A DNA stretch of 48,129 nucleotides, filler included, from Basidiobolus ranarum (taxonomy: Eukaryota), in NCBI GenBank assembly GCA_040143965.1. It is 2 parts of 2 records of this genome, joined end to end, with 100 filler letters (N's around TTAATTAATTAA, not from the genome) between each part and the next. Parts side by side here need not be neighbours in the genome. Positions count along the whole stretch, not along the records: positions 24,146 to 48,129 come from JASJQH010007034.1; 1 more part is not named here. One strand, 5' to 3'. The notes under the pieces are model-generated. The model was not told where the DNA came from and did no database searches. It was given only the letters and a program-made list of their open reading frames with translations. Positions 8,069 through 47,003 of this stretch are shown here, piece after piece. The first letter of the stretch is position 1, and the number at the start of each line of letters is the position of its first letter. The position numbers and the translations under genes were made by a program.

Positions 8069-9337
8069 ATGGAAGTAATTTGGATCACTCTGGTTGCATT
8101 CTGTATTTGGTTTCTTATCACTTTGGTTTCTCTATACTTCTTCATACAATATCGCCATGAGCCAACAATACAACATCGCTCAGTTAGCTTAACATGTATG
8201 TTTGCGCTGTTCAACTCAATATTAATTGGATACCTTCTATACAAGCTCGCCAAGCCTGTCACCTCCTGTGTGGTTCGACTGTGGATTCCCTCAGTAGTCT
8301 TTCCTGCTTTAGGTCTTACTGTACTTGCCAAACTTATTCGTTTGACGTTTCTCGGAAGGTATCATAAGTCTATATACTTGGAAGCAAAGCTGGAGTCTTC
8401 CACTAAGGAAGATGAAAGCGGTTATGAGATGGAATTATCGGAAGAGTCATTTGTCGGTATAAGGGGTAGTAACAATTTCAGAGAAGCCTGGTACTACAAA
8501 TATCGCCATCTTTTCACGACATCGCACATCCTAAAGACATTGTCTGCCTTTATGTTGTTTCACGTAGGTGTAACTGCGATAACCAATGCTATTTCTCCCA
8601 TGACATCCATTCCCGGCCAAGAGTGCCCTCTTGGTTGGGAGTTCTACCCTTTTATCGGGTTTTTAATTATCTACCTCTTTTTGGGAGTTCCTGTGTTGCT
8701 GTACTGGTTCTGGGGTGTTGAAGACGTGTATGGAATCCGTAAAGAATTGATTTCAGTGGCAATTATCGCAATGGTTGGATTCTTACTTTATTTAATATTC
8801 CTATTTCTCCCCTCTTTGCGTATACTGGAGAAATCATTTGCTGCCTACGTATGGGGTGCAATTGTACTAGTCTTAACTCACATCCTTTTCGTCATTTACC
8901 CCATTTACGAACTAAGAAAATCTCGACAGGTTCGAGCCAATGCCAATAATACCCAAGTCTTCGATCAGATTTTGTCAGATCCAGTGCTATTTGAAGACTT
9001 TAAGGCCTTCACTATTAAAGACTTCAGCGTAGAAAATCCATTGTTTTACGAACGCTGTAGGAAGCTAAAAGCCACACAACCACGGATTATCCGCATTCCA
9101 GGGAAAGACTCGTTGAGTGCCAAGTCTCGCAATGAACTCCGTTCAATGTATGAGACCTTTATCAACCCGAAATCAGAATTTCAGGTGAACCTTTCTTCTG
9201 CAACCATTCAAGAATTGACGAGACAGTTTGAGTCTGGTGAATTATCATTGACTATGTTTTCAAGAGCCGAACGAGAGATTCACCTCCTAATGTACCAAAA
9301 TACCTTTCCACGATATATTAGGTACACAGACTTATAG
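8069..9337 (+). CDS. Seven-transmembrane protein fused to a C-terminal RGS domain (GprK/AtRGS1-like architecture); intronless, 422 aa
   Basis: First ATG at 8069, downstream of TATAAA at about 8002 (the ORF-track start at 7958 is a TTG). Seven hydrophobic segments are followed by the RGS signature FDQILSDPVLFEDFKAFTIKDFSVENPLFY...MYETFINPKSEFQVNLS...MFSRAEREIHLLMYQNTFPRY. Confidence 0.88.
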   Translation: MEVIWITLVAFCIWFLITLVSLYFFIQYRHEPTIQHRSVSLTCMFALFNSILIGYLLYKLAKPVTSCVVRLWIPSVVFPALGLTVLAKLIRLTFLGRYHKSIYLEAKLESSTKEDESGYEMELSEESFVGIRGSNNFREAWYYKYRHLFTTSHILKTLSAFMLFHVGVTAITNAISPMTSIPGQECPLGWEFYPFIGFLIIYLFLGVPVLLYWFWGVEDVYGIRKELISVAIIAMVGFLLYLIFLFLPSLRILEKSFAAYVWGAIVLVLTHILFVIYPIYELRKSRQVRANANNTQVFDQILSDPVLFEDFKAFTIKDFSVENPLFYERCRKLKATQPRIIRIPGKDSLSAKSRNELRSMYETFINPKSEFQVNLSSATIQELTRQFESGELSLTMFSRAEREIHLLMYQNTFPRYIRYTDL

Positions 9338-13160: not shown

Positions 13161-16100
13161 TAGATTGCTAACTGAAGTCCGTAGAGATTACTGTGCTAGT
13201 ACTTGAGAGTAGCAGCTGTTGTAGTATATATGATTGTTGAAGACTTTCCAGTATTATTTGGTGTCGAGCTATACATAACTTAGTAGCTTGAGTTTCTGAT
13301 TAAGATATTTCTGTGATGAATTATCAAGTTGTTTCATAAAATGTTAAAGTTCAGATTCCACTTCTCAGTAGCGCTTAAAATGGCAGACTTTGTATTTTCT
13401 ATTTCGTTTCCCTACAATTGTAGTGCTAACTTCGATCATCCACAAATAAATTCCGGTTTCGTGCCTGGTCACATGGGGAGTTTGGGTACCTCCCGAGTGG
13501 TTCAAACTTGATTACGAAATGCTATTTTTTTGTAGTTGTATAGAAATTGCATCGGGCTTTGTATTGCTATTAGCAACGGACAATTCGGTTTCCAAATTAA
13601 GGAAATATCCCTGTATGTTGGGTGGGCTTAAGCCTGGACTCAACAGAGTAACAAATCCCGATTCAGGGTTGACTTGTCTTACTGGGTGCAGTGTACTTGC
13701 GGTAGAACATGGCTCCTTGATTCTGATGATACCAACTGAAGTTTATCTATATGAAACGTCATTATATTGGCAGTTCATTTTTTGGTCCCTAACTATCCAA
13801 GTAACTAAGCGATTGGCTGTCAGATGGTACTTTTCAAATACCAATTAAACATGTTTCAGGCTCTAGGAGACAAATTAATCCGTACTTTTAAGACCACTTA
13901 AATCAATATTGGCAAGAAGATTCAGGGAAGATGAAAGGCATTTCGAGCTAGTTTTCTTACTCTAGACGTATAGGAGTGTGTTGTAAACCAAGTTTGCTCA
14001 CTCAGAGGCAAAGTGAAAAGGGGATAGATATTGAAGAGCGTAACAAATTAAGGGGTACTGCAGAGAGTGAGTAAAGCACAGGGATGAGTTCGAGTTGGCT
14101 AGTATTGAGTTTCAATTTGTTCTAAGTGGTAGATAGACGTAGGAAGCTTCAAAAGCCTAGGTATTCAGAGAGGATACAAATACTCTTGTCTAGCATCTAA
14201 ATGTTTTCATCGTGTGTGCACTCCACAATGCCGAGCACTGACCATTCTGTTCGTCTTGCGCTCGTATAAATCTAAAGCATATCACTCGGAAACGTGTGAA
14301 CTCTTGGCCTAATTTGAACGGTATAGCCATGGTAGGAATCTCTTTGTTACCTAGGTAGCAAAAGTTACTGTTTTTCAGGTTCGAAGGTGCGAAATCCCAG
14401 TAACGTATTTCTTGTAAAAGCCTGATCCGTATTCTGATCAGTTTCTTAATGATTTCGTACCTTTGTTAGTCAGAGGTTGATGTGTTCAACTCTACTTTGT
14501 AATTCCAGCTTAATGATTCCCAAACGATTTTGGATATTATTACGGGTTATGAAGATAATTCGCCATCGCACGTTTATCATGCTCAGGCTTGTCAACTCTC
14601 AAACCGTCGATGTTCTGATTATTTCTGCAGGATCCGCTCCACGTAGATTTCATTTGCAATCAAGTGTCCACAGATGTATAGCTCTAAGTGAGGATGGAAA
14701 CCCATGATTTCATTAGAACGCTGTGAATATGAATCGATCAATACAGAGACAAAATTATTCTTAAACATCCCCTATTTGTTCGTTTTCCCTATTCCACTCA
14801 TGTACTGAATGACTCCATAATTGTAAGTATTCATATCCACCGCTCATCTCCTATTTTGTGGTTGACTATATTGAATGCAGTGTAACTTAAGAACTAATCC
14901 CTATTGAGGTTATACAAAAGCCAACTGTGCCTGAAAATAAAGCTACTGTTGTAGAGCCGAGATGTCGTTTTAAGTATGATTAGTTTAATAAACCCAGGGG
15001 AGAGCGCTTTTCATATGCCTTTATATATACGGGCATTTGTTCAACCAGCTTCGATAGTGTGCTGAAAAGCAAGTGGTTGAGTGGATGATTCTAGTGTATC
15101 AAAGCCCTTGCCTGAATAATCGAGTAGTAGATGAAGCAGATGAATACCAAATCTAAGGTGACCAAGTCAATATCTTGCTTGTGTCTCAGCATGATAGATC
15201 TCCAGATTATTGTCATCAAGAGCTGATCAATCATGCGATCGGCCACAACGAAAATCGTGACCTTATTGAGATAATGTACAAGTACAGATTTCTAACGTAT
15301 AACAGTTGGTACTAATATCAGCTCAGCTGAAATCACTGGCCATGCGATTACCCAAGCCTAAAGTAACTCTGTTGAGTTAATCTGACTGGAGGGAGTATAA
15401 GGCATGGAGAGAATACTAGGCTTTCTTGCTTAGTATCCGCCGTATCGCTTCGGCTAATAAAACTAAATTACGCATCCAGCTTCTATAAAATTGATTTCTG
15501 CCGGGTGTTTCGGATCAAAGAGCACATACATGTTCAGTGTATTCCAGATGAATGGGTGGCCGTATTTGTCGTTCCCTTAGTTCAGCGATTCAGATTTATC
15601 ATCGATATTGATCTAAAGATATTATGGAAATCTCGTGATGTACTCATCGATCTATTTTCTTGGGATCTCTAAGGGTGGAAGCTGACAGCTTGTCGTAATC
15701 ATGGACTATGTCACAGGTTTGTGGAGTCGTAATGAAAGGGTAGGAGGAAGGGTGATTGTGTGGCTTCGACAAAATTACTATAATCTGATTTAAGATTAAT
15801 ATCACTTGCCTGCTATGCCACTGATGTTTTGATATAAACCTGAAACCTATTTCTCGTACTTCAACAACACCGAAGCGACAAAGTGAGAATGGTATTAGAG
15901 TACACTACTTGTTGTTTATTTTTTGGAAACGGTGATAAATATGAAATATAGCGAAATGTCAGCGAAAAACTCAGAATTACTGAACGAAGTATATACACAA
16001 AAGTGATAATCACCATACGTTGTGTGATCGAAGCTAGATACAATGCAAAGGCAGATCATAGATCTTTTTTGGGGGTGTTGTGTGTACTAGTGTATTTTGG

Positions 16101-16195: not shown

Positions 16196-17179
16196 CTAAG
16201 ACGAGGCATTGTCGTAGGCTACACGACATTTCTCTTCCACTCTGTAATGGCGACTTAGAGCATCAGATCTTGGAAAGCCTTTGCAACATGCAATGCATTC
16301 ATAAGGGCGGCTCCCAGTGTGAAGACGAGTGTGACGCTGAAGATCATGCTTTCTGGCAAATGAGCGAGGACAGAATCCACAAGAATATGGGCGCAGATTT
16401 GAGTGACTACGCATGTGTGAAGTCAAATTATACTGTCGACTAAATGATTTGGGACAACCAGGAAATGCGCACTTGAAGGCATGCGCCTTTTGAAAGCCTT
16501 CACTGCTAATATTTTTGTCGGAGATGCTCTGTTGAAGAACTTGTTGTGGGTATGCCATTGTTGGTTGCGATTGAGAGGATGAGTGCGCAAGTTTAGGCCC
16601 TTTGTTGGAAGGTTCATAGACAATGAACTTAAATTGATCCAACGATTGATTAGGCGATACAATCTCAATTTCATTGTCAGTTGCGATCTCGTTAAACTTC
16701 AGAGTATTTAGTAGTAAGGTGGCCCAGTCCTCATCAAATGGAGTATCACCGGAAGATGTAGTGGATACGCTAGAGCTTCTTGAACGAAGGGCTGGTGGAG
16801 GTGAGGTAGTACCAATCAACTGAGTAACATCATAATCCAAAAGAAAATTCATCTCGTTGGTTGGAGTAATTGGTAAGGGAATCAACGATTCACATGTAGA
16901 GAGATCTCTATTTGAGGGAGTTAAATCCAAATGAAACTCTAATGGGGTTGTCAACGTATCTTCGTTGGATAGAAAGGTGCCATTGAGTAAGGCATCATCA
17001 AATTCAAACTTCATTCCTGCAGAAGATGTGAGTTCAGCCTCTAAAGAGTTTGAAAAAGTGTATGGAGTGAATCCCTCTAAAAGTGAAGAAGCATTCAAAT
17101 CGGAAAGTAAAAGGTCAGGGAAGAAGTTGGAGTCCAATAGGTGATTTCTCACAAAACTGCCATTGTTCGTGATTGACAT
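16196..17179 (-). CDS. C2H2 zinc-finger transcription factor with Crz1-like finger array; intronless, 327 aa
   Basis: Acidic Ser/Thr-rich N-terminus. Three fingers: CAFPGCPKSFSRQYNLTSHMRSH, CGFCPRSFARKHDLQRHTRLH-TGSRPY, and CIACCKGFPRSDALSRHYRVEEKC (C2HC-type end). TATAAAA on the minus strand at about 17276-17282. Confidence 0.9.
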   Translation of the reverse strand: MSITNNGSFVRNHLLDSNFFPDLLLSDLNASSLLEGFTPYTFSNSLEAELTSSAGMKFEFDDALLNGTFLSNEDTLTTPLEFHLDLTPSNRDLSTCESLIPLPITPTNEMNFLLDYDVTQLIGTTSPPPALRSRSSSVSTTSSGDTPFDEDWATLLLNTLKFNEIATDNEIEIVSPNQSLDQFKFIVYEPSNKGPKLAHSSSQSQPTMAYPQQVLQQSISDKNISSEGFQKAHAFKCAFPGCPKSFSRQYNLTSHMRSHSNLRPYSCGFCPRSFARKHDLQRHTRLHTGSRPYECIACCKGFPRSDALSRHYRVEEKCRVAYDNASS

Positions 17180-20100
17180 GCTTGCTATTTCTTAGGGCTC
17201 TTAGTGTATGTAAAACTCGTTGCCAAAACGCTATTGATAATTGAGATGATGCTGGATGAGTATCTGATGCCTCACTTTTATATCTTCGTTTTTACTTGAA
17301 TCTTCAGCTGTTGCGATGTCCATAATTAAAAACCAACGCATATTGAGAAATATCAAGAGATGCTCCGATATGGACTAGGTAAGACTATGGACGAGTTGAA
17401 CAGGTCAGTATATTTATTTCAATGCAAGCTACATTTACCTCTCTCTAACTGGTACTTGCACAGTCTTGATTTCCCATTCCTAAAATAACAGCTATGATGC
17501 TGACTCTGGAAACGCCTTAATAACCAACAATCGGCATTTCATATGCCTGTGTGATGTTGGCCAAGAAGTAGGGCTAATCTTGGGAATTCACTATAGTGCC
17601 TGGTGTTTAAATGTATGACTATAGTCAATCGTCTTACTGTAAAATACTGTCTTGCATTCCTTGTATTGTGGAGACAGCGAACAAATAAGGAAAATCCCCT
17701 AGCAGGTTTTGTGGCGTGAACGTATACCCTTTTGAGTCAGTCTACACATTTGGGAATAAGGTTAAGGCTTTGATGTGTATTGCTATATTTGACAGAGACA
17801 ACTACTACCTCCATCAATCATTACCAGGTGCTTTGGATCCACTAGTGACTTTGAAGGTTGCGTAAGAAATTGTTATCGGTGTTCATTAGAAATGGGCGAG
17901 AGAAACTACCTCACAGCTCGGCGCCACAAGGGCTTGGAAGTACAATTTCCAAAAAGGTAGCAATTATCTAAATTAAGAATTAGAGATGTAATCGTAAATG
18001 GATAGATCAAATTTTTGACCGATGTGAGTCCGTCATGACAAGCAAATGATAAATGATCCACATTCAGTACTGTATATTGCTTTGAACACTCCTTACTACC
18101 AGTCTTAAGGAAGAATTTATCTGAGATTCTTGAATCATTTCGTTATCAGGGTCTATATACCATGTGGTCTGGTATTTATGAATGTGATTACATTCCATTT
18201 ACCGGTAACTTTCTGATCTTATCTCCCACACGAGATGTACCATGTTTCGTTGAATTTGGAAAGTGCGAATGGAGTTAACAAGTAGACGGACTTCAATAAA
18301 GGTAAAATAGACGGATATGGAACTTACTAACCTCACAACAAGCTACCCAGCAGTAGTTCACCCTATCCATTTGAACATTGATGAGTTGTTAGTCAACCGT
18401 CATCTACTTTTTGACCGTAAACTCTGCCCCTTAAACGGCTTATCGGAGCTAACAGAAGGTGCTGAGCGTTACTTTAGTGACTCTGCTAGAATATGAATAA
18501 ACCATTCTTTGTATGACGCCACACTAAACACACTCCTTAGTTTTTTCATTATCTAACTGAAATTAGGCTTTAAAAGTGAGTAATCCAACTGCGAAGATGC
18601 TCTGCTGATGGTTGTGTATAAAATATTTAGTATTTTATACATATTTAAGGTCTCGGAGCACCAGGTGGCCAATATTAATATGATGTAGACGCTCCTTAAG
18701 CACTAATGGAGGCATTAAATCCCATAGTTCAGGTGCTTAAAATGTTGGCTTAGCTCTCAAATACTGTTATCACATGCCTTGAGATAGCCATACTTTCAGC
18801 AAGTCCACACTTGCTTTTGATGAAAGCAGCTCAAATAAATCTTAGTTTAAAGGAACAGACCACGTATTTTTAATGATTAGTTCTATGTAAAATGGGTGGC
18901 CTCGAGAATACCTCCCGTTCTGAATACAGTGGCAATTTCTTTTAATTTTAACTTGTACTTTCATAAGCCTCCAGCTGAATCAACTTTCCAACTTTGATGG
19001 GTTTGGTAAGAAAATATCCCCGAGCGGACCAAGAATGTACATCGAGATTCTGATAGGGTATTAATGGTTTCTAAGTTACAAGTAAGGAATTCCCATGGAC
19101 TCTCTTCTTTTTGGCCATTGTTGCTCCCGATAATCGGGTATCCCAGGCCGTCAAGAGCCTTGCCATCCGCAAATGGGGTACATTGGATTGTTAATACAGT
19201 TGTGATTTGCCTTGCATCCCCATCTCATGACAAATAAGATAGCTTTACAAGTGGCATGAAAATATTTTCGTCAGAGGTTTCAGTTGAACTCCATAACTCA
19301 AATAGCAAGTTCGATATTTTCCGAGGCCTCTCAATCTCTCCCTTATCATGGAGAAAACATATGCACGAAGTCAATCCATCAGCTCGACTGCGGAGCAATG
19401 AATAACAACTGCACTAAATATCAAAACTGAATTTCAAGTGACTTGGAGACAACCCATGTCTTGCTTCTTCTCTTTGATGCAATAAGCAAATGGTATGGAG
19501 TTCGCTCGAGGATTCCTCATAACTTTGACATTATAAAAGCATGTTCAATATTCTATATATATGTATGTATGTATCCAAAGAAATATCGTAGATATAACTT
19601 TGACCTGATAGAACCACCACTATTTCATATATGTACTCTCCATGTCGTGTAATGGTGACTAACTTCTTCATTTACCTTCTTCGCGGATCATGAGTGAGAA
19701 GTACAAATTTGATACCAGCCATCTCAGGTGGCTTGTCAGGATCTTCAGGTTTGAGGATTACCCAGTGGAAATCAGCGCGAATGTTAAGCAAAGGTCATTG
19801 GTGATATTTATCAGAAGTGAAATAGGCTTAATGGAGGATTCGTTTTCGAAACCCCGCGAAGTACCAATTTTCCAGTGACCTAAAATTTGACTCATTCACG
19901 TGGCATAACTTAGATCAAGGTGCACCAAGTTCCGACGGGTGAAAAGGTTTCTTAATATATAACATTGCCTCTTCTAGTGGCTCAACATATTTAACTTAAA
20001 GTAGACTATTAGATGTCAAATTTGTTCATACTACAAGAAACCCGCACCTTTACCAGAAAATTGGTCCTTTTCCAAAAGATACCCAGAATATCAACTTGAT

Positions 20101-32845: not shown

Positions 32846-33700
32846 TTAGGCATTATTAGTTTCTGGAGGGCATTCATTGGGTTTGGTTGTGCACTTTTTG
32901 GGCTTTGGTATGCACTTTGTAGGTGCAGAGATAAAGGTAGGACTAACGGTTACAGTGGTACCGTCTCTGGTCATCATAACAGTTGCTGTAGATACACTTA
33001 TGGAGACAGAGCTTGTGGGTGTGTAACTCAAAGTACCCGTACGAATAATGGTGGAGGTATCTGGAGCAATGTTACGAGTAATCCTAGTTTCCCCCATTGT
33101 TTCCACAATGGTGACAGGATTGTCATAATGAGTACTCAATACACCATTTTCTGTGAAGGTTTCTGGATCTTGATCAGCAACGGTATAGGTTAATGTAGGT
33201 CCAGGGATTGTTCTGATCACTTGGCGTTGGTTAAAACTTTCTATGATCGTATAGATGTAAGAGTTTCCAAAAGTAGGACCAGTAACAGTGTAATAGTCGA
33301 GAGTTTGCCCACTCGTCAGTGTGTAAGTAGCGGATTTCTTTTGAATAGTTTCAGTAGCAGTTAAATACCAAAGTTCTCTAGTAGCAGTTTGTACTGGTAT
33401 AGATTGTATGATGGTTATATCGGGGTTTGATCTGGTGAGAACAGCCCCAGGTACGGTTCGGGTGATACCTCCATCCATCTCGGTCAATGTTGCAGCCATC
33501 AGAGTATCAGTAGTAACAAATCCTGGCACTGTATCCCTCTGTGTATGAGCTGGAATAGTCGCAGTGGCTAGCTCTGGATCTATATACAGAGTCAAAGTCA
33601 TGAATGGATACTCCACAGTTGCAGTGGATTGACTACGCACTGAAGCACTGAATGAGAGGGCTAATAAACACCATGTCAACTTCTGAACTTTGTAAGCCAT
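32846..33700 (-). CDS. Secreted Thr-rich protein (adhesin/mucin-like); intronless, 284 aa
   Basis: Signal-like MAYKVQKLTWCLLALSFSASVRS; very high Thr content with recurring (T/I)RT(V/I)PG-like motifs; short Cys/Lys/Pro C-terminal tail; no GPI-type hydrophobic end. Confidence 0.75.
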   Translation of the reverse strand: MAYKVQKLTWCLLALSFSASVRSQSTATVEYPFMTLTLYIDPELATATIPAHTQRDTVPGFVTTDTLMAATLTEMDGGITRTVPGAVLTRSNPDITIIQSIPVQTATRELWYLTATETIQKKSATYTLTSGQTLDYYTVTGPTFGNSYIYTIIESFNQRQVIRTIPGPTLTYTVADQDPETFTENGVLSTHYDNPVTIVETMGETRITRNIAPDTSTIIRTGTLSYTPTSSVSISVSTATVMMTRDGTTVTVSPTFISAPTKCIPKPKKCTTKPNECPPETNNA

Positions 33701-36618
33701 GTTGTTGGGAATGATAGAACTTGTTTGTTCAAGTGGGCCTCTTTCTGAATTTTATAGATTCTATGTAAAGATAGCTAGGTGGCTATTTTTATTGACAGAG
33801 TGGAATGAGGCTTCTGAATCGAAAATTGGTCAGAAAATAATCCACATTTCCATCAGTCGAAAGTTCTTAATTCTACTTTGATCCTTTCTTCCTATAGAGG
33901 ATGAAGGAAGAGCATAGTTTGGACAAGTCATACATTTCCTGTAAAGGCCTTATTGTAATGAAGTAGATGATCGAGAGGTTGGGTTTGACTTGTTAATTTT
34001 TTGAGTGATATTAATTGTTGGTTGGCTGATTAAACCAATCACGACCAAGTCATAGGTTATTAATAGTATAAAATAGCATGTTCATAAATAGATAATCTAG
34101 ATATGGTAGATGTTGGTCCGTGAGTTACTCATCCTATTGGGATATGGTTATTTACTTGAAACTGAAATTCGAAACCATAGCATTGACTACCCAAAGAATT
34201 TCATGATGGGCTGATTGCGATTACTAACCATTCGTCAAGTGGTGTAAAAACATATTTTTAGTGATTACTCAGTCAGTATGCCGTAGCAAAGCAATCCTCA
34301 ACAGTTGCGAATTTATTAGAAAATCTCATTTTCACTTCATTACTTGCTTGGATTTGTGAGTTTTTTTTACAAGCTGAAGTGGTTAGGTAACTCTAGCATG
34401 TTACCTCAGATGATCCATTCACCATATATTGCATATAAAACTATATAGTTAATATGATACAGCTTGTTACTATTGTTAGCAATATAGAGTAAATTGTGAT
34501 AGAGTCCAGTTATAATAGTGACAGTAATAGCAAAATCATGAGTGTCGCTTCCTACCTTGTTTATTAATAACTTATGGACATTCGAAAGAAGAGTCAAATG
34601 TGATATACTGGTCAAAATAGTCTGCGTAAATCAGTCCATTTGATCAATAGAGCTACTTCTGGCATACAAACTTCTATTACAATATAGTCAAGAAGGTATA
34701 TTGCAGCTCTGGCAAGATTCGCAGAGTAATAACTATTGGATGCAGATTTATTAAATCGCTATTACATACTTTCTGAAGTTCAAGATAAATTCGAAGTTAC
34801 TTGTACCAAATTCTTTTTGCGAACCAACGTATCATCAAGTTTTGGCATGCTAAACTCGGATCCAAATTTCATTACTCTCAAATATCATTTCTGGGAACTC
34901 TTAATCTCTAAAATAGTGAACTTGTAGGAGTCAACCTACTCTTCAATTTACACTGATAATATCAATTACTGCAGTATCATATTCTCAAATGCAAATTCAA
35001 ATCCGAGTAATGTTGAGATAATTGATAAGAAAATGAATAGCTTGTGTAATTCTGCTTGTAAACACTGGAGTTTCCCATGTACCACGTTTCACTATGCTCA
35101 TCAATAGGTACCATTAGAGCACTATAGATTAGAAAGTTGGACTACATTTGAAAGCAAAAAGTAGGGACCGAATACCTTCTCCTACGGGTTCAATTCATTT
35201 CTTCGCCGTATAGTTTGGATACAAATCAAGAAGTTAGGTAACACCTAAAAATATCCACATGGAAAGTACCAAGGGTTGGAAAAGGGGTACATGGAGCCAG
35301 GTTTAAATTCTACCCCTAGGTTATGAGAGTATTATGAAATAAACTTCTTAATCTATACTCAGGGTACGTATAGCCGAGAACTTGCTTGTATCTCTTTAAA
35401 GTAGTAGATGGGAACACAAGAGGTGTAACTTCAAGATGTGGTTGTTTACTTCAGTGTATTGCAAATACTTTTCCCTCCGCCTTCGTCACATCATTTCATG
35501 TAATACTATTACTCCTTTAGTCCAAATTTACAATTTACAGCCCATTCATCCATTTCAAGCTCCAAGATGCCACAGAAAACCCAAAACTTGGAGTAACTCT
35601 AGAAACCTGGATTTGTAAATTGGGCACCTCGAATACAATCTGATAATACCATATCTGAGATGATCTGATTAATACGATCCGACAATAGTTACAGAAGTAT
35701 TCCCATGTGTGCGACTACATGAGTACGAGCCTTGTGGTATTCCCAGCCCCACTCACTCCGAAGAAGATTGCCAATCAGAGTACGATTAAATTTTCGACAT
35801 CTTTGCTGCTTAATCTTTGGCGCCTCAAATCAGCTAGGGCTACCCCTACTTACCGTATTGAATTACGATGGAGTAACAGTGTCATGAAGTTAAAGATGAT
35901 CAACTTAGCCATTATGCCAAGGATACGACAATAAAATTCAACACTGAATGTGACGATTTGATTATTTTTTCCTCTACTACTATTGGTTCGTTAATAGGTA
36001 GAACTCCCGGAAAAAAGTTTCTGGAGCATTGATTATACACAATTTCGATAGTTATAGAATCTCTACTACTGCCGTTGACGAGACCATGGTCTTTTTTAAA
36101 TCCAAAGTTTTTTCGAAATCTGTCAAGTTATAACAATCCAACAGTGTCTAACGACTATCTTGGAAATTCTCTAAACTGGAAGGAACAAGTAGAAACCATT
36201 GCTGGTTCTTGTTATCCTGGTTTGTGCGCTATAATTTCACTCCCATGAACAAATTTGGATTTCGGTCTAGAATTAAGACACACATCATCCAAAAGCCAAT
36301 CCCCAAGTTTGGAAATTTCATCGAAAAAGGTATCGTTTAGTCCAAAATGGGGTTATTATTATTAGCTTATACATATGTGTATATAAATATTTCAAGTTGA
36401 CCAGAAATAATGCCAGTTTCACTTTTATGGCAATGATTGTAAGTAATTCGGAATGTGAGATCGAATCTTGATCGATAAACCGTCGTGTGACTAAATTTCT
36501 ATATACGATAGTTTCCTGGATCCATTGATTGGGGAGAAGAAATTTCGATATTCATGGATAAGTTAATAATGATTGCGCTTTGATATTTATTGAAATTTTG
36601 AATGAGATGAAGATGTAA

Positions 36619-38556
36619 TCATGTGGATTTGAGAGGGGTAAAAATCATTTGGGTTATAGGCATTCTAAGGAAAGTCTCTCTAAACAATTCAACTTTGGCT
36701 CCTGCTGGTTGTGAAATTTGATAATTCTTGACAGATAAAGCTAATACCGCTCTGACAACCTTCTCACCATAAGGTTGTCCTAAGCATTTACGTGGTCCAA
36801 GGCCAAAACGCCAGAGGGAATAACGATATTGAGCAGGCTTTAGGTCGTAGAATCTTTCGGGTCTGAAGTTATGACCATCACCTTCCCACACGGGGGCATC
36901 GTGGTTGAGTGCTAATGCGTCAATGATAACACTTGTCTGATTGATGCTCAAGATTAGAAAAAATGATACATTAATGTAGGTATTTGGGGATTACTTACTC
37001 CTTTAGGTATTCTGTACCCAAGAATGTTTTTCTCTTCATTAATAACTTCCGGGAGTGTATAAGCTGCATTTTTGAAAATATTAAGTAAATGTAGAAAAGC
37101 GTGAATATATTGAGTACTTACCTGATGTTGGTCTCATACGGGAGCTCTCAAGCATTACGTAGTGAAGGTAAGTGTTGGATCGGCATATGTAATCTTGGAA
37201 TTCCTGGGAATGTATGTCATCACCACAAGCTTCCATCTGTTCTAATACTTCCTTGCGAAGTTTCTCTTGAACATGAACATTTTCGGAGAGTGAAAGTAAT
37301 TGCCATGCCAGAGTTGAGGAAGCGACATCAATATTGGTGAACAAGATCTCATCAATTGTTTGTAAACACTTAATATGTCCAGTAAGTAGAGTGATTTAAC
37401 ATGATCAAAATAACTGACTCAACGAATACCTGCATCATGGTAAGTTTTCCCTCTTCAACAGCTTGGTACATATGAGAGGCTGGCGTAGCTTCACCGCTCT
37501 ATATGATAAAAGTATTAAAAGTAATTCTAGTTTACTATTAAAGCACTGCTCTACCTTCTTTGAGGATTCTACCATACGATGGTTGAAATCAGCCCACTCT
37601 TCGTGAAATTTATCCATTCGGCGGTTATTAACAGTAGGGAATAGTCTATAGAGTTTCAAGCGAGGTAGTCTCTCGGTGAAACATACGCCTACTAGTTTCT
37701 CATGATCTTCATTGGTGTCAATTAGAAATTGAATATCCTTTTGGGTTAAGCAATTTCCATACAATAGTTGAGCCACAAGAACGAAGGGTAAATGCTTGAT
37801 GGAATGAACAAGCGGGAACTCAAAGCCATTATCTGCAGTTCTTTTATCAATTAATGGACAGGTAGGCATATCATGAACCCAATCATTGACACTCTTGATT
37901 ATATTGGGAACCGTTGCATTGACCGCTTTATTATGGAAAAATGGATCCACTACCGATCTCATTTGCTTCCATTTCTCCCCGTGAATGAGCCCAACACATT
38001 CTCCAAGCATCATGTAGAAGAAATGTCCGATATTCAAACTTTGCTTCTTGGAGTGATTAAAGCCATCCTTGTAGTAAAATGCCACATCTTCTGGCTTAGT
38101 GAGGACCCTAGTAATTAATAAATGTCAATGACAACGGCGCCGTATCAACACATGTATCACTGTCTTACAATTCAGGATCGAAGCCATCCCATATGCGATA
38201 GATTCTCCCATAAGCCTTACGATAAGCAATACTGAGATCATAGCCATCCTGAAGACGAGTGTACCTATCACCATCAGGTAGATTTGGACGGGGCCCGGGA
38301 ACAGCATTTCCTTCATCGTTGATCCAGCGGTATTTATGAATGAGATACTCCTATAAAAACATATATCTATCCTTGAGAACGAGTTCAACTTGGCCAAGAA
38401 ATAAGATTGTCCTACCTCAGCAATATACTTCAGTATCTTCCATAATGACGGGAGAAACACTGGAAGAGTTACTGCAACCGCGACCAGAGAAATAACCCGA
38501 GATTGGTAGAATGTGCTCGAGGATTCAGCAAAGAATTGCAAGAGTGATGCGATCAT
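36619..38556 (-). CDS. Cytochrome P450 resembling GliC/SirC-type diketopiperazine-modifying P450s, multi-exon
   Basis: N-terminal TM anchor; spliced YGRIYRIWDGFDPEL|VLTKPED, MLGECVGLIHGEKWK, HLPFVLVAQLLYG, LQTIDEILFTNIDV (I-helix), ESSRMRP (ExxR), IIDALALN, FRPERF, RYSLWRFGLGPRKCLG (heme Cys). These blocks match my recollection of GliC (YRIWSG, LGxCVGLISG, LQTLDExLFANLDV, RYxxWRFGFGPRQCxG). The P450 call is firm; the subfamily call is less so. Confidence 0.9.
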
Positions 38557-39258
38557 TGGCTCAGCTACTGGTGTGAAATCAGTATGCTGTTATGGGTTCT
38601 GCTAAGGTGTTTATATACTAGTGCCCTTTCATGGATCACTCTAGTACCTTTTTGTACGCCCTTTAGTACGGCGTTAATAACCAATGGATTGTTTGCTAAC
38701 ACACGTTTCGTATTCAGATGAATGCTTTATTAATCGGGGAAAATGTTATGCGAATATTTTGAAAAAATAGGGGACTAAAGATGGATTGTTCATTTGCAGT
38801 CGATACTCGCCAATTAGTCATATATTTCCTTAATAGCTCATTGTGTAGTACCCACCATGGCAGAGTGCCATGGCTAGTACTTGAATTCAGCCAATGTCAA
38901 TACAAAAAGCTGCACTCATGGCATAAGGTACTGCCCGCAAAAGGAAAACATATGGTAGCATTCGACATCAACCGAGGGTTGGTACCGATGTATGCAAAAA
39001 AGTAGAAGAAAGACAATAAGACACTTTGGAAATTAAATGAAAAATGCTTAATGGGGAAACTTTGGTGGAAGTCCTTTTTTTATTTTTTACAGGTTTTTGA
39101 GAACGGTTGAGCTGAAAACATACCGCTATAACTGCCATAAATTGCCCTATTTCCTCAAACTAATCTTCAGACTCCTCGAGGCTTTTGTGATCCAAGTGGC
39201 AGTGCCAGAATTGACTTTTACAGTACCAGAATCTTTTCTCTATAAGCATACTTCCAAA
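38557..39258. promoter_or_regulatory. About 700-bp divergent promoter shared by the P450 and the unknown gene
   Basis: Head-to-head ATGs. TATATAAA on the minus strand at about 38610-38617 and TATAAG at 39241. A 35-bp dyad lies at 38847-38881, and there are eight GTAC cores. Confidence 0.65.
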
Positions 39259-40726
39259 ATGTCACTTTATCTATACTTGACCGAGACTGACCAACTCCGT
39301 AATATGACGGTTCGCCGTAATACCTACTCTACGCAAATAGAGACTCTGGAGCGTGGTGTTGGAGAGGCTCTAGATGCTTTGTCCCTCTTTGTGGACATCT
39401 GTAATGGCACCCAGGAGTCTGGATTGAGAAGCTACGATTGCCATGTTGCCGACTGTGGTTGCCATTATCGTGCTGATATGCTCATATATCTCATCCAGCA
39501 TTATGGCGGCGACAGAAATAAGCTCATGGAGATAGAAAATTATGTTTCCCAACTTCACCAAGTTTCGAAGCGTATTTCAGAGGTCCAAGAGAAGTTCAAA
39601 ACCATGACCAATCCTAGGGAGATGTGTTCTGCCCTGGGTATTGATGTACATGCTGAGACTGTTGAGAGTCTTCATACAAAGCTTGGCATTCAAGTTGATA
39701 GCAATGGTTGGTATAACAATTCTACTGATACCTGGGATCCAAATAATCCTTGGATGGTATGTAAATTTCTTACCTTTGCTTATGTACTTCGAAAGTACAT
39801 GAAGATAACGATGATCGATGGAAATCTCATTGGGCGTCTACATATCAAAGAACTTGGTGGGAATCGAGTTAGAAAGGAGTTCTTGGAGATGCAAAAATGC
39901 GTGTCTGGACTGTCGATGTCATATATACAGTGTATTCACGAAGAGTTGCAACTCCCTCCCATGATCAAAAGGTAAGTTCAACATCTTATTATTTGAATCA
40001 ACTAGCAGTATTCTAAACCCCTTTTTTTGCAGTTTAATTGAGAAAACTATAGCCAAATCTCCTAAAGAAGTCACAACTTGCTCGACATACGTCGGCTTTA
40101 TGCCTCTCGCATGGAGATGGCAGTTACAGAAACAAAATATTTTAGTTCACATTCGTCGTTTCTGCCAGGAAGGATTTCACAATAACTACTTTGTCCTTCG
40201 CTCACACTACCAGCCAAAGAATCAAAAAATGAAAGGACACAAAGGAGAAGGAAAGCAATTTCCTCCCTGGTCGTGGGATTTCGAGCAGGTGGATCATCAA
40301 GAATTGATTGCCCGTCGCTCATATCATGGCTCATCACTTATTATTGCTGGAAACAGTTTCGATGGCTACATTGATGGCTATCTTCAGCGCATGGCCGATA
40401 CCAACTGTCGTAAACATGACGAAGACTGTGAGGAGAATACTAACCATTGCAAACAACTTTTGAAGCGTGACTTCACTGATATATTGCTTCATAATATCGC
40501 ACAACACGAACCCTATCCATTTCAATATGACGAGGAGAAATGGGAAACGACATTGCGCGATCATTGTGGAGAGCAGTTTGAGGAATACAAGACGTATGCT
40601 CGAAACGCAGATAGCCTGGGTTGTGGTAGAAAAATGGATCTGTTTACTATCCAACACATCTCTGCTGAGAATGCTGTATCATACGTCAGTCTCATGCAGA
40701 AGATGGAGAAGGCCGTCTCTCTCTAA
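39259..40726 (+). CDS. 468-aa soluble protein of unrecognised family (candidate biosynthetic core enzyme), 2 exons
   Basis: ATG at 39259; exon 1 39259-39971; 61-nt intron GTAAGT...CTAAAC...TTTTTTTGCAG at 39972-40032; exon 2 40033-40726. Splicing joins ORFs 39097-39975 and 40100-40726 in frame (1407 nt). No signal peptide or TM segment. Cys/His-rich motifs YDCHVADCGCHYRADML, HIRRFCQEGFH, NIAQHEPYP, LGCGRKMDLFTIQHI. Confidence 0.82.
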
Positions 40727-41709
40727 GTAAACTGCATTTAACATACAACGTCAATTTCTATATATATTAGTCTATCCCATTTTAAATATATACATTTGCA
40801 TATTTTACTCTTTCACTTGTTATGAATAAACGGAAAACCATTTTATCTAACCAATTGGAAGTCGTAGAAATCCTTATCGATCATATATTAAAGTTAACGA
40901 TCAAAACTCAAGGCGCCTGTCACCAAAGTTGTCCGCAGAAAATATCGAAAACATCGAGAAGCACGCGACAACAAATATGTGAGAAAAATAAATATAGAAT
41001 ATATTTGCTAATCCAATTTAAGTGCTGAGTGTAAAGCACCAATTTTAGCCCTAACTCTAAGCAGCAGATAGTTGTGTAATGTTAATTTGTTTGTTATCGT
41101 TGCAATCTGATAACAACCCTACCCTATATTTCCATTTACTGATAGTGGTACAAGTGGTTTCTAATTGTAGACAACTGTACCACGGAGTTCTATATGCAGA
41201 CGCTGTACGAGTAGTCGTTAGTCATACATGCTGTAGATCTATACTTCATATGCAATTGTCCCCAACTCTTACCTGATCCTCCACTGTTTCGAGTATTGGG
41301 ATTCTTTCTCACGCCCATAGTGAGAGTTTAGATTGAAGTTAGGGTGCAACTGGGTATATATAGGGTGCACTCTATGGTTCACCCGAATGCTTATGTACGC
41401 ATGTGAAAGGGTAAACGGAAAGAGTAGGGATGAGAAGCACAAAATGATCCAACTGTCGTACATGCTTTGTTTGAGTCTCTAATTTAGAAACAGTTACTAC
41501 TTGAGCCCGAGATTGATACATTTAGTAATGGCCTCTACATGCTATGTTCCTATTAATTCATTTAGCAAGAATTTCTTTTTCTGTGTTTGCGCATTTGCGT
41601 TACAATTAGCTTTGGGTAAAGGTCTTGATTGCTGGCGATTGGCTAGTAGATTATGCAGAAATCTTGGATAAATACTCAACGGTCATCTCTAGACAGTATT
41701 CGTTTCACA

Positions 41710-43624
41710 ATGTCAACCGAAATGTCTGGCAAGTCTTCGATCAAATTGGAGGATATGAAGACTTCCTCGGGGGAATGTCAGAACCCTGAACTTGGGGCGC
41801 AAGAAAAAGATACTGAAGATACCTTGCCGTTAGCTAAACTAATCACCGTTTTAGTTGGGTAAATATACGTTGGCTTGGCCTATCAAATTATAATCCTCGT
41901 TCTAATGGCTTCTGTGTAGGCTATTTTTGACCATGTTTTTGTCCGCTCTGGATCAAACGATCGTTGCCACAGCTATGCCAACTATTGGCTCTTCCTTTGA
42001 TGCCATAGATAAAATATCTTGGATTGCTACTTCCTATCTACTTGCTTCTACCTGTGTTCAGCCTTTAAGCGGTAAACTGTCCGATATCTTTGGAACCAAG
42101 GTGACCGTAATTGCTGCAACTGTAGTGTTCGTCGTTGGTTCCGTACTCTGCGGTGCTGCCCAGAATATGGCCATGCTGATTGTTTTCAGAGCGATATCTG
42201 GCATAGGGGGAGGTGCCATTCTTGCTTTGGTTTCAATCATTATTTCACGTGAGTGATTTTTCAAACATCTTATTGTCTGCTTTGGTTTGTTCATCCTTTA
42301 AACTTGTAGAGCTCGTCCCAGAGCGTGATCGTGCCAAATATATGGGTATGATGGGGTCAGTGTTCGCTTTATCCAGCGTCTTAGGTCCCATACTTGGTGG
42401 TGTATTCTCCCAGTATGTCAGTTGGAGGTGGGCATTCTATATAAATTTGCCTATAGGAGGTATCGCTCTGGCTGCAACAGCTATTTATCTGAAGAGTGCC
42501 AAATCTGAAGGCTCCTGGAAAACCAAAGTTCGTCGTATTGATGGTTTGGGAGCTTTAGCATTGGTCGTCAGTACCATTTGCCTTTTACTTGCTGCTGACT
42601 GGGGGAGTCATGAGCCTTCTACCTACAAAACAGAAATCATCGTTACGGCGATCTTGGCTGCGATTTTCTTGATCGCTTTCATTGGAGTGGAATGGAAGGT
42701 ATCACCTGAGCCTATTATTCCACTTCGCTTCTTTAAGATACGTAATGTTATACTTGTTACTATCGCATACTTTTTACTTGGATGCACATTTTATGTTGCA
42801 GTATACTACTTTCCGGTTTTTTTACAGGTAAGAATCTTTTTCGTTCATTGTATGGTACAGTATGGCTAATCATTACTCAGGCTGTTCAAGGACAATCTGC
42901 TACAGAAGCTGGTATACAACTTCTTCCGCTCTTACTCAGCCTAGTGCTGTGCTCTATCATCGTAGGGATGTTGGTCAGTCGTCTTGGAACATATCGCTTT
43001 TTTATTTCTGGCGGTTTCGCTGTTACTTCAGCAGGCTTCGGATTGGCCAGTATGCTAAATCAACATTCTAGCCAAGGAGAAAAAATCGGATACTTCCTTA
43101 TTATTGGAGTTGGAACTGGAATGAACTTGCAGACATTACTAATGGCAGCTCAACCAGCTGTTGAGAGTAAAGGTAAGATTCAGTAGAGAGTATTTATGTT
43201 GAAATAAGAGTGAAACTCATTCAATTCTATCATCTTGAAGATGTCGCCTCAGTTACCGCACTATGCACCTTCTTCAGAACTATAGGCTCAGTCATTGGAC
43301 TTGCCATTGCGCAAACTTTAATGAACACTAGAAAGCAGAGTTTCCTCAACAAGAATTATCCTATGTTTGCGGTAAGCTTATCCTCTCGTGAACATCCTTG
43401 GGATCTAAGGAACTGATATCATGACTTTATTTCAGGATCTGGCTACTATCTCGGTGGATAAAATCAATCTATTATCAGCAGATAAAAGAAATGCTCTTGT
43501 TGGAGCCTATACAGATGGGTTCAAGTTGGTATTCATCGTCCTAGCAGTATTCTCAGGAGTTGCATTCATTGCTACTCTTCTGCTTAAACATATTCCTCTA
43601 AAATCGAAGTTGGCTAAGCGTTAA
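41710..43624 (+). CDS. MFS drug:H+ antiporter, DHA2 14-TM type (GliA/Azr1-like efflux pump), multi-exon
   Basis: MFLSALDQTIVATAMPTI (motif D1), WIATSYLL, GKLSDIFG (motif A), LIVFRAISGIGGG, LGPILGGVF..YVSWRWAFYINLPIG, EPIIPLRFF, FFRTIGSVIG. GT-AG introns link the ORF pieces. Confidence 0.95.
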
Positions 43625-46463
43625 ATATAACTATTGTATTAGTATTTGGGAAGTGCAGATAGAAGTCTTTTGTTGAGTCTGCTTAGATATATTAGGCCAC
43701 ATCGTTTTTTTGACTTTCTAATTATAGTATTTGGAATATATAGTATTTGGAATAAATACGTCTCGGAATGTTTCTGCTTAATTTCAACTATAAATACTCA
43801 CCGGTAGTAAATATCGAAGTTGTACCGAACAATCATGACTATTCGAGGGATAGTACAAGGATTAGAATTCATGATACAGTCCCAAGTATTACGTAGCCAG
43901 GTTCTTCAAAACTAGCGTCATTGGGTATATTACCAGGATAGGATCAATAAGATTCAACAGGTTTGATGCCTCCGTTGAGTGTCTTTGTAGCCATGGCTAA
44001 CACTGCTAAGGTGAATGCAACTCTGATCAGCCTGAATAGCAACTGTGGAAGTATCTGGCTGGTATAGTGTCCCGAGTGTAACCCAAGAGTTGCCGTAGTG
44101 TGGAAGGAATGAGTGTCTCAGATTACGGTCAGGGTGTGTTCCATTCAGGAATTGGAAAATGCTTACAATGACAGCATAACCAGTATAGCAGCAGAAGAGG
44201 CTAAGTTTGTGAAAAGAAAGCAATATTGATCGTGTTTCTGCCGTTGTTTCGGTGCCATTCGCGATGTGTTACCTCTTAGACACGAACACAAAGCTTGGTT
44301 ACTTGATCGTTAATGTGCCAAGCTCGTAATCAACCTATGTATTCCTTGTGGGATCACTTATTTTGTATTAGTCATGCTTACTAACCACATTCTCTCAATA
44401 CTGCTCATGTTTGATAGCCACATTCCCTCTATCTTATCAAGTAGCTCTACTAAATGTTTGTGAGTGTATTCGTTGCTGGTACCTTTGTAAGACGTATGGA
44501 CTTGGACTAAAGAAACAATATCCAATCATATAGAAATACTGATCTTAGATAGCTCAAACTGGTACTTAGTTAGCCCATCATACCCCAAAATAACAATTAC
44601 TCTACGTTATTACGGTCCATTGGTATGCTACTTTAACACCATCAAGCACATCTTGACATTAGGTTTACTTCATCTCATGATGTAGTACAGCAATCTAATC
44701 AGATGTTTAGTGATTGTGTTTAGTGATTACAGATCCAATTTACCTGAAACATTCTTACATCAATAGCTGGTAGATTGCTGCAACTTACACAATCTGGTGC
44801 ATAGGTGAGGGCCCTAACCCTTGAAAATGCAAAGGAAAGAACTTGTTTATGCCCAGGCGCAGAATAGCCTCTAGAACTCGGCTAATAAGAGAAAGAAAGA
44901 CTACCCCAAAGATTAAATAGTCACTTGATTATATATTGCTGTGAAGATATTGCTGACCCTTTGTGTTAGTCATGTTATTAACTTAAATTCTAAAAATAAA
45001 TCTGCTTCCAAAGGTAGTATATTGTATATATAATAGTGCAAATGTCTTCAAGTGAAAATATTTCCATATTTTGCTTGTTTGTCTAGTAGATATTTATCAG
45101 CATTATGCAGGCAGTATGACTAATTTGAATATTGGCGCAGTTACACTGCTTTTCTTTCTCAGTACTTCAGAATTGTCACTCGACTCTGAAGATATGTATA
45201 TGTACAAACATTTGAATACAGATCGAAATAGTCAACTTACTCCACTTGGCCGCGATCTTTGTATGTGTAATGTGATTATCATACATCGCATAAAACTCAG
45301 AAAAATATACATATTGGATGCAAGATTCCCCATTTAAGCAGAAGACATAAATCTAGCAATCTTAATACAAGCACATTACTAATCAGCATATCTGCTGAGT
45401 TGCTTATTTGTGTAACTACAAGAATTCCCACTATGAATCAGATTACCATAAGATTGGAGCTGGTATTATAAAAGATAGGCCAAGACATGTGGTATGCAAG
45501 TGTGAGTTCTTGAACTGTACTATTTGCTGTGCCATACATGTTTGGTGTATCTTTACGGACACATTTACAGTACACATTGAAATAAATGCAAGTGTGGGTA
45601 TTGTGCCTGTGTTGTTGTGGCAATATGTAGAGACTTTCATTACACTGCTAGATATGATGGTATCGCATCATCATTAGCATATCTATCATTCACCCTTGTT
45701 AAAACCTAAACTATCTCATCCTTGGTAGGCATCAATATACTGTCTTGCTATTTATATCACAGGTTGTATTCGAGCTCATATGTGGATATATAAGGTGCAA
45801 TTAATATTACACTTACTTAGAGCATTGTACATTTGACTTGTGATCAAACAATTCTTATCTGATATTCTTTTTTTCCTTCCAAAATTCCCTGATTTCTTTT
45901 GACAAAACTCCTTCCACATGCTTCAAACTTTGTTTCAAGATCCGGTTGGTAACTGTCATGAAGTACATCATGTATCCTCTTAGATTGCGGACATGACTCT
46001 CGATATAGAGTTATGGGTTTTAATTTGGCCAGTTTTGCTAGCACATTTGGATCGTGATTGAAAGATTTATGTACTTAACATTATTTGGCTAGGGAAGGAT
46101 GGACAACCAACAAGGACTACCACATAAATCTCCATGTAAAGTTGGGGGAATTGAGTGTAGAGCTTGATCTCCTTAGATATCTATATGATAAGGCAATTAT
46201 ATTTTCGCCAGTAGTTTTTAGATCCTGGATAGAAATAGCATCTTAAAAAGTGTGCTGATGGTAGTTCAAACAGCAATATAAACTAACATAAGCCTTATGG
46301 CCCGCTCCTATATTTCAATTTTTTATTTAGTTTAGTGGCTGATATCGTTCTATTTTGCCAGTTGTATTAACTTGATTTGGGATTTACAAAGCGGCTCTAT
46401 TTGTATTGGTAGAATTCTTGACATGTCTATGGTATAGTCTAAAAATGAATATATTCAATGAAC

Positions 46464-47003
46464 CTACTCATGCCAGATGAATGATACTCCTTCCCCTGGA
46501 TAGAAGTTGACGTATGTAGTAATGTAGGGACCTCCTTCCCCATCGATGTAGTAGTTCCAGTCACTAGTGTAGACACTACCATCATCATTAATACTCTCCA
46601 CCACCGCAACATGTCCATATGAATCACAGCCTTGATAGCCTGGTTGAATAGCAATGATAGAAGGAACGCGTGGCTCATCAGAGACTACCCAGCCTTCAGT
46701 ATTCATAGCACTTTCTGGCCAGGTCTTGGCATTACCCCACCATTGGGTGTGGTAGCAGGTAAGTTGATAGTAGCGAGCATCAGCCCAATCAGTACATTGG
46801 CCGTTATCAAAGCGAAACTGAAGAGGGCAAGCGTAGAGGTCTGTAAGTCCCGGGAGTGCACCTTGTAAGTCAGCTACTGCAGTATTGTTCAGTGTCGAGG
46901 AGTTTATAGATTTCTCCGAAGTTGGAAGAGCTTGCGTGACCTGACAAAAGAAGCTAACAGCAGCCAAAATGGTGCCAGGTAATACTGAGGTGATTTTAAC
47001 CAT
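46464..47003 (-). CDS. Secreted CHAP-domain (Cys/His amidohydrolase/peptidase) protein; intronless, 179 aa
   Basis: Signal peptide MVKITSVLPGTILAAVSFFCQVTQA; FDNGQCTDWA (catalytic Cys), WWGNAKTW, PRVPSII, YGHVAVVE (catalytic His), VYTSDWNY. TATAAAT on the minus strand at about 47059-47065. Confidence 0.92.
   Translation of the reverse strand: MVKITSVLPGTILAAVSFFCQVTQALPTSEKSINSSTLNNTAVADLQGALPGLTDLYACPLQFRFDNGQCTDWADARYYQLTCYHTQWWGNAKTWPESAMNTEGWVVSDEPRVPSIIAIQPGYQGCDSYGHVAVVESINDDGSVYTSDWNYYIDGEGGPYITTYVNFYPGEGVSFIWHE

Follow-up and report, generated by a model that had tools for sequence, protein, structure and literature searches.

We analysed a three-gene locus (36619..43624) of Basidiobolus ranarum, a fungus assigned to the Basidiobolomycota in the NCBI taxonomy. 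The locus lies in a window of 48,129 nucleotides, by which we mean the whole stretch of DNA analysed (two parts of assembly GCA_040143965.1 joined end to end, filler included), and consists of a cytochrome P450 gene, a gene coding for a 468-amino-acid (aa) protein and a gene coding for a major facilitator superfamily (MFS) transporter. The window is low-GC eukaryotic DNA (approximately 38% G+C) and its genes are spliced.

The P450 gene (K7432_004550; 36619..38556, minus strand) contains several introns and codes for 524 aa. Three of its exon open reading frames (ORFs), all on the minus strand, matched Pfam family PF00067 (E = 3.6e-6, 2.2e-6 and 4.9e-11; 26–42 bits against a cut-off of 22.8), and the annotated 524-aa product (P0076) maps to 38556->36622. 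The last exon holds the haem-thiolate motif FGLGPRKCLG (WRFGLGPRKCLG), the ExxR motif reads ESSR in the translation, and the protein has an N-terminal hydrophobic anchor. N327, D329, E389, R392 and C470 were invariant in an alignment of the P450 clade (A3). The I-helix in this alignment reads DEILFTNIDV(T/A)S, a clade-specific sequence that includes the invariant N327 and D329 and differs from the usual P450 motif, (A/G)Gx(D/E)T(T/S), which may point to unusual oxygen-activation chemistry. A search of the ESM Atlas with the P450 returned generic P450 clusters only. No protein among the listed relatives was named GliC-like or GliA-type, the types to which the first-pass annotation of this DNA had likened the P450 and the transporter.

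The start codons of the P450 gene and the 468-aa gene are 702 bp apart and oriented outward, leaving a divergent intergenic region (38557..39258) that is presumed to be a shared promoter. The 468-aa gene (K7432_004551, plus strand) has two exons. Exon 1 (39259..39971) codes for residues 1–238, a mainly helical N-terminal part carrying D60-x-H62-x-x-D65-x-x-C68, and is followed by an intron of 61 nt (39972..40032; GTAAGT...CAG, GT..AG). Exon 2, stop codon included (40033..40726), codes for an alpha/beta part carrying C282, H287, S346, H366, C370, H396, H446 and E450. The spliced 468-aa model is identical, letter for letter, to a public protein (P0001). A gap of 983 bp separates the stop codon of this gene from the start of the MFS gene (41710..43624, plus strand), which contains several introns and codes for a TRI12/DHA2-like transporter with a probable ATG at 41710 (start codon approximate) and a stop at 43624. 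Pfam MFS_1, Sugar_tr and TRI12 were matched on its exon ORFs: four plus-strand ORF pieces (41906–43621) were scanned, three of which matched MFS_1 (E = 2.9e-19, 2.4e-15 and 1.5e-4), and one of these also matched TRI12 at a borderline level (E = 2.9e-5; 23.2 bits against a cut-off of 23.2).

Both flanks of the locus, each approximately 2.85 kb, are poor in ORFs. No stop-to-stop ORF longer than 81 aa was found on the left (33752–36618) and none longer than 104 aa on the right (43625–46463), although small intron-rich genes may be present in either. No non-ribosomal peptide synthetase (NRPS), polyketide synthase (PKS), terpene cyclase or dimethylallyltryptophan synthase (DMATS) was found in the window, where 25 ORFs reached 110 aa or more, the longest measuring 459 aa, and ten ORFs outside the locus were scanned with Pfam. 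The first-pass annotation had described this layout, with three linked genes, a divergent promoter of about 700 bp, an exporter gene about 1 kb after the unknown gene, gene-poor flanks of 2.8–2.9 kb and no gene of the four core-enzyme classes just named, and the Pfam matches, the identity to public models and the measured distances bear it out.

A fungal protein family with a conserved residue signature

The 468-aa protein had been described as unclassifiable, but it is not an orphan. A phmmer search with P0001 against 1.84 billion cluster representatives identified a family of 56 proteins across fungi at E ≤ 1e-3, with 25 at E ≤ 1e-10 and three at E ≤ 1e-30 (counts include the query). A word-based search among longer proteins returned only the 468-aa protein itself. 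Of the 55 other members, 30 were checked for a name: 22 had one (21 fungal and one rotifer), and eight were unnamed metagenome or read-assembly proteins. All 22 named members were annotated as hypothetical, uncharacterized or an unnamed product. The fungal members belong to Chytridiomycota, Calcarisporiellomycota, Gigaspora, Ascomycota and Basidiomycota (taxonomy checked for five species). These members include the chytrids Gaertneriomyces, Geranomyces and Spizellomyces together with Gigaspora and Calcarisporiella, the Ascomycota are represented by Penicillium, Talaromyces, Coccidioides, Candelina, Xylographa, Lentithecium, Macrophomina and Purpureocillium, among others, and the Basidiomycota by Leucogyrophana and Dendrothele. 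The rotifer member (P0055; 434 aa), from the bdelloid Adineta steineri, keeps nearly all of the signature residues that it covers and has a gap in the C282 column; this protein could be a transfer from a fungus or an assembly contamination. A pattern scan of 185,579 prokaryote genomes gave 31 pattern matches, none of which was confirmed as a relative, and this argues against a bacterial origin of the family.

Database comparisons did not place the family. No Pfam family was common to the 25 members scanned at E ≤ 1, NCBIfam gave nothing meaningful for four members, and the only match of the family profile in the Protein Data Bank (PDB) was TAF11 at E = 0.8, which is noise. The family went unreported in a full-text search of the literature that included six locus tags of members or partner P450s (subscription journals and supplements outside its scope). 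Because these searches found no paper describing it, the family appears to be undescribed.

Twelve positions are near-invariant in the members that cover them: D60, H62, D/E65, C68, C282, H287, S346, H366, C370, H396, H446 and E450. The residues from D60 to C68 form the motif [FY]D[ASC]HxG[DE][TC][AGS]C and S346 falls within GNS. With three Cys and five His that are nearly invariant, combined with Ser, Asp and Glu, this pattern suggests a catalytic or metal site. An AlphaFold2 model built from a 55-sequence alignment had a mean predicted local distance difference test (pLDDT) score of 91.8 and a predicted template modelling (pTM) score of 0.92, and its N-terminal part is helical, whereas seven strands belong to an alpha/beta part. 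According to the secondary-structure string of this model, the conserved residues sit where strands end or in the loops after them. A Foldseek search of the model against the PDB (to April 2026) gave no matches at E ≤ 1e-3, the best having E = 0.37 and TM scores reaching 0.19 at most. The ESM Atlas's own model of P0001 was poor (pLDDT 0.33) and gave no usable feature match. A complex prediction for the P450 and the 468-aa protein scored 0.00, in a run where alignments were unused and the partner's own fold was uncertain, so that the score speaks neither for nor against contact.

Linkage to the P450 and probable co-inheritance

The closest relatives of the P450 belong to species that also have members of the 468-aa family. 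We compared linkage of this family to the P450 in the nine species named in both lists of relatives. In seven of the nine both genes are on contigs identical in length, and in five of these seven, Basidiobolus included, they lie within two locus tags of each other. Besides Basidiobolus (P450 K7432_004550, 468-aa protein K7432_004551), the close pairs are those of Calcarisporiella (P450 VTP21DRAFT_1588, family member VTP21DRAFT_1589), Candelina mexicana (P450 M1836_001931, family member M1836_001930), Geranomyces variabilis (P450 HDU87_006668, family member HDU87_006666) and Penicillium paradoxum (P450 N7457_002461, family member N7457_002463). The tags are further apart in Gaertneriomyces sp. 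JEL0708 (P450 HDU85_005850, family member HDU85_005843), and in Leucogyrophana mollusca the P450 and the family member are each on a 56,052-bp contig. Coccidioides and Gigaspora fall outside the adjacency comparison, since for each of them the P450 and the family member were taken from separate assemblies.

The pair also recurs in metagenome DNA. Among 23 metagenome loci, all of them true members by the family profile, P450 genes were sought with tblastn (E ≤ 0.05) or the clade profile (E ≤ 0.01). On contig L003 a P450 of the same clade lies approximately 1.9 kb upstream of the family gene and divergent from it, and on contig L002 a P450 lies 4.6 kb downstream of the family gene with an O-methyltransferase gene in between. 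Contig L002 also holds a gene for an oxidase with a FAD-binding domain (PF01565), located approximately 1.8 kb beyond the P450, after a gene for a Saf4/Yju2 splicing factor; the O-methyltransferase and oxidase features are at 7440–7925 and 13193–14872 of that contig, both on the minus strand. A gene model from Chaetothyriales (P0099) has an O-methyltransferase fused to a P450 of the clade. The cassette may be larger in some Ascomycota.

The two proteins also show similar patterns of divergence. Pairwise identities of both proteins across the nine species were correlated (Mantel r = 0.87, which none of 10,000 permutations reached), part of this correlation being expected from species history alone. 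Identity to the Basidiobolus proteins was 21–32% for the 468-aa family and 33–49% for the P450. Quick maximum-likelihood gene trees, with support from the Shimodaira–Hasegawa-like approximate likelihood ratio test (SH-aLRT), recovered the same groups for both genes: Basidiobolus with Gaertneriomyces and Gigaspora (support 95 and 100), Geranomyces with Leucogyrophana (84 and 86), and the three Ascomycota (99 and 100). The trees disagree only on the placement of Calcarisporiella, which has weak support (56). The group of Geranomyces and Leucogyrophana is not a grouping of the species tree; it places one chytrid with a basidiomycete and apart from another chytrid of its own order. Because the same groups appear in both trees, the two genes seem to have stayed together through inheritance, duplication or movement. 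The two same-order chytrids were also compared directly, and both genes are clearly different between Gaertneriomyces (P0074/P0077) and Geranomyces (P0021/P0081), with 21% and 38% identity. In both trees the versions of these two chytrids each group with other phyla, which points to two old lineages of the cassette or to a transfer of the pair.

That the three genes are adjacent by chance and functionally unrelated would agree with two observations. The two promoters carry no common motif: 38557–39258 and 40727–41709 have seven 9-mers and a single 10-mer in common, where 8.6 and 2.1, respectively, were expected, which is no signal. Linkage of the pair to an MFS gene was seen only in Basidiobolus. 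Such a coincidence would, however, have to account for a pair that recurs in seven of nine comparable species and on two metagenome contigs and for gene trees that are congruent, and a chance neighbourhood of the P450 and the 468-aa gene is very unlikely; for the three genes together we give this explanation next to no weight. With recurrent linkage and agreeing gene trees, the two genes therefore very probably work together.

A candidate two-gene cassette and the rest of the window

In our interpretation the genes for the 468-aa protein and the P450 have long been inherited together, as a two-gene cassette whose products would make or modify one small molecule; we give this reading a probability of about 0.5. 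A core-less pathway in which the two proteins are partners is a fair reading of the comparative evidence, which supports it well. The 468-aa protein would be a soluble enzyme of undescribed fold, with an active site that is probably metal-dependent or Cys/His-based. D60, H62, D65, C68, C282 and H287 could form this site, which would further comprise S346, H366, C370, H396, H446 and E450. Most likely the protein makes a substrate that the membrane-anchored P450 would then oxidise, with the product possibly exported in Basidiobolus by the downstream MFS pump; in some Ascomycota an O-methyltransferase would join the cassette instead of the MFS. Four elements of this reading are inferred: the enzymatic nature of the 468-aa protein, its place ahead of the P450, secretion of the product and a part for the MFS transporter in the pathway.

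Several points weigh against a dedicated cassette. For the named species, adjacency was taken from locus tags and not read from DNA, and numbers in the JGI style (VTP21DRAFT) may deviate from the order of the genes. Among the 14 metagenome loci with a flank of at least 4 kb on one side, a P450 was present at one (L002) and none was detectable at the others (L004, L005, L008, L010, L011, L012, L014, L015, L017, L018, L019, L021 and L023); L003, which has shorter flanks, is the second of the 23 loci with a P450. At L012 and L019 the family gene is surrounded by ordinary genes (for a trehalose-phosphate synthase, an F-box protein, a laccase, a Myb protein and a kinase). Many of the P450-less loci come from similar samples and have identical alignment patterns, and as such they are not independent and may represent few lineages. 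An MFS gene like that of the window was found near no relative at the metagenome loci examined. The first-pass annotation had proposed to test whether homologs recur beside P450 and MFS genes; for the P450 they do (seven of nine species and two metagenome contigs) and for the MFS gene they do not, and with no such gene at any other locus, only its location in Basidiobolus connects the MFS gene with the pair. A basic cell function would be just as conceivable for a family that reaches into chytrids and some of whose members stand by themselves among housekeeping genes.

Such a role could be the making of a wall or spore component or of an internal signal by a soluble enzyme and a P450, as with DIT1 and DIT2 of yeast, a gene pair that is arranged divergently; the MFS gene would then be incidental. 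The great age of the family, which is found in chytrids, Gigaspora and Dikarya, is consistent with a conserved function of this kind, as are the many members that stand among ordinary genes without a P450 and the lack of an MFS gene near the relatives. The patchy distribution of the family (56 representatives in 1.84 billion) fits an accessory pathway better, however, and the O-methyltransferase in Ascomycota and the FAD-binding oxidase on L002 are typical of secondary metabolism. We therefore consider a conserved cell function improbable.

The loci without a P450 bear also on whether the 468-aa protein might, instead of making the scaffold, act in tailoring at a later step or assist the P450 without catalysis of its own, for instance by binding metal, carrying substrate or regulating. 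Three near-invariant Cys and five His would suit a structural metal site equally well, and adjacency that is kept for a long time is common also for proteins in contact. The conserved set, however, includes Ser, Asp and Glu at strand ends, as in active sites, and members that exist without a P450 are unexpected for a dedicated helper. The P450 itself has an N-terminal membrane anchor and is presumably of the kind served by a general reductase. A helper or late tailoring role is on balance decidedly improbable.

The two-gene cassette admits a stronger version, which we put forward as tentative and rather doubtful. The 468-aa protein would be the first of a novel fold and of a novel class of core enzymes that form scaffolds, with no relation to Pul1, to arginine-containing cyclodipeptide synthases (RCDPS), to bacterial-type cyclodipeptide synthases (CDPS) and to ABA3, and with its P450 it would form one of the oldest fungal biosynthetic pairs, predating the split between chytrids and Dikarya. 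Core-less fungal pathways are missed by standard genome mining, and those that have been solved (Pul1/Pul2, RCDPS and ABA3) each gave a new enzyme class. The P450 partner has travelled with the 468-aa family through at least five fungal phyla. The family defined here combines a sharp signature of conserved residues with a confidently predicted model that has no match among known folds; it can be taken directly into heterologous expression, and its conserved positions can guide mutagenesis.

Other genes were found elsewhere in the window. Of the ten scanned ORFs outside the three-gene locus, seven had a Pfam family and three had none, the families being AlkB-like 2-oxoglutarate (2OG) oxygenase, TLDc, G-protein-coupled receptor (GPCR)-RGS, C2H2 zinc finger, mitochondrial carrier and CHAP. 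An ORF of 179 aa (46464–47003, minus strand) encodes a CHAP domain (Pfam E = 1.3e-16) and has an N-terminal hydrophobic stretch resembling a signal peptide. CHAP is a peptidoglycan amidase/peptidase domain of bacterial type, here in a fungal genome, and this gene may have been acquired from bacteria, which would fit reports on Basidiobolus (PMC7466969). In a plus-strand ORF (7958–9337) an RGS domain (E = 2.7e-14) is combined with a class-C GPCR-like seven-transmembrane region whose Pfam match was weak and under the cut-off. A Thr/Ser-rich ORF of 284 aa (32846–33700, minus strand) likewise has an N-terminal hydrophobic stretch that resembles a signal peptide; it matched no Pfam family and probably codes for a protein of the wall or of mucin-like type.

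Comparison with known systems

Close proximity of a P450 gene and an MFS exporter gene is also a feature of gliotoxin-type epipolythiodioxopiperazine (ETP) clusters (GliC P450, GliA MFS). The window differs in that it has no NRPS (GliP) or other ETP genes, and the P450 clade is defined by its partner and reaches into chytrids. The reach of this clade, together with the lack of an NRPS in the window, argues against an ETP-type context.

Bacterial-type CDPS (AlbC, YvmC; PF16715) are comparable in the proposed role only, which would be to make the substrate of a P450 as in YvmC/CypX. A CDPS identity was excluded because the 25 members had no Pfam match at E ≤ 1 and because no PDB match was found by sequence or fold, structures of the CDPS family being present in the PDB. 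RCDPS (AnkA, AvaA) are alike in being hypothetical proteins without a Pfam domain that are widespread in fungi and act as core enzymes of core-less clusters (PMC11610942). The residues reported as essential in AvaA are C193, DDXXE, Y392 and Y515 (PMC11610942). Compared by these reported motifs, the 468-aa family has no conserved DDXXE and seems to lack the two Tyr. DDxxE occurs in three of the 25 aligned members, in three different alignment columns, and the best-conserved Tyr columns (257 and 399) have Phe or Trp in 7/25 and 6/25 members, respectively. As for the essential Cys (C193), the 468-aa family has three near-invariant Cys, C68, C282 and C370, none of them assigned to it. The suggestion in the first-pass annotation that the 468-aa protein is a cyclodipeptide or amide synthase was a guess to which neither Pfam (no CDPS match), PDB folds nor the RCDPS residues lend support. 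By analogy with the Pul1/Pul2 and RCDPS clusters, a product with an amino-acid-derived scaffold, such as a cyclodipeptide, is one option, to which we give a chance of about one in four.

Likeness to ABA3-type terpene cyclases (BcABA3, PDB 8ZAC) lies in a fungal scaffold enzyme without classical motifs that is encoded beside P450 genes, and ABA3 has a zinc site with Cys ligands (PMC11695735). ABA3 is all-helical, with structures 8ZAC, 8ZAD and 8ZAF deposited (PMC11695735). It also has bacterial homologs. In contrast, no prokaryote relative of the 468-aa family was confirmed in the pattern scan of 185,579 genomes. An ABA3-type identity was rejected on the predicted model, which has seven strands, and no PDB match was obtained by profile or by Foldseek. 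AsR6-type humulene synthase was also considered as a precedent; its structures are in the PDB, and the 468-aa protein had no PDB match of any kind.

A further parallel is with the pulcherrimin (PUL) genes of budding yeasts, which Krause et al. 2018 reportedly found to be ancestral to that group. The pair could be the early-fungal counterpart of these genes, with the 468-aa protein as a distant Pul1 (forming cyclo-Leu-Leu), the P450 as a Pul2-like N-oxygenase and the MFS as the transporter, yielding an iron chelator like pulcherriminic acid. Pul1, which has no known domain, and the P450 Pul2 (CYP5251) suffice for pulcherriminic acid, Pul3 being a transporter and Pul4 a regulator (PMC12342472, PMC11610984, PMC6723986, PMC6851878). 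The architecture is alike, with a domain-less protein directly beside a P450 (across a 702-bp spacer here) and a transporter in addition (PMC12342472, PMC11610984). So is the size, Pul1 being probably about 450 aa, to judge from a top identity of 99.78%, compared to 468 aa here. The domain-less partner also evolves faster than the P450 in both systems: between K. lactis and M. pulcherrima, identity is given as 31% for Pul1 and 50% for Pul2 (PMC6851878), which parallels the 468-aa family and its P450 here. Differences are, however, apparent. No budding yeast is among the 22 named family members or the named P450 relatives listed, the transporter is TRI12/DHA2-like, and the O-methyltransferase added at some Ascomycota loci is foreign to the PUL scheme. 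The cassette also lacks a Pul4-like regulator of the zinc-cluster type, with none found between 33.7 and 46.4 kb, and the one zinc-finger gene that turned up in the window (16196–17191) is of the C2H2 type. A pulcherrimin counterpart is on this comparison unlikely, and of consequence in either case. If the 468-aa family is related to Pul1, the origin of pulcherrimin-type chemistry would move to the base of the fungi and the family would give first clues to the mechanism of Pul1; if it is unrelated, the family would be a new class of biosynthetic enzyme. Related to Pul1 or not, the pair would provide an extra detection rule for cluster-finding software.

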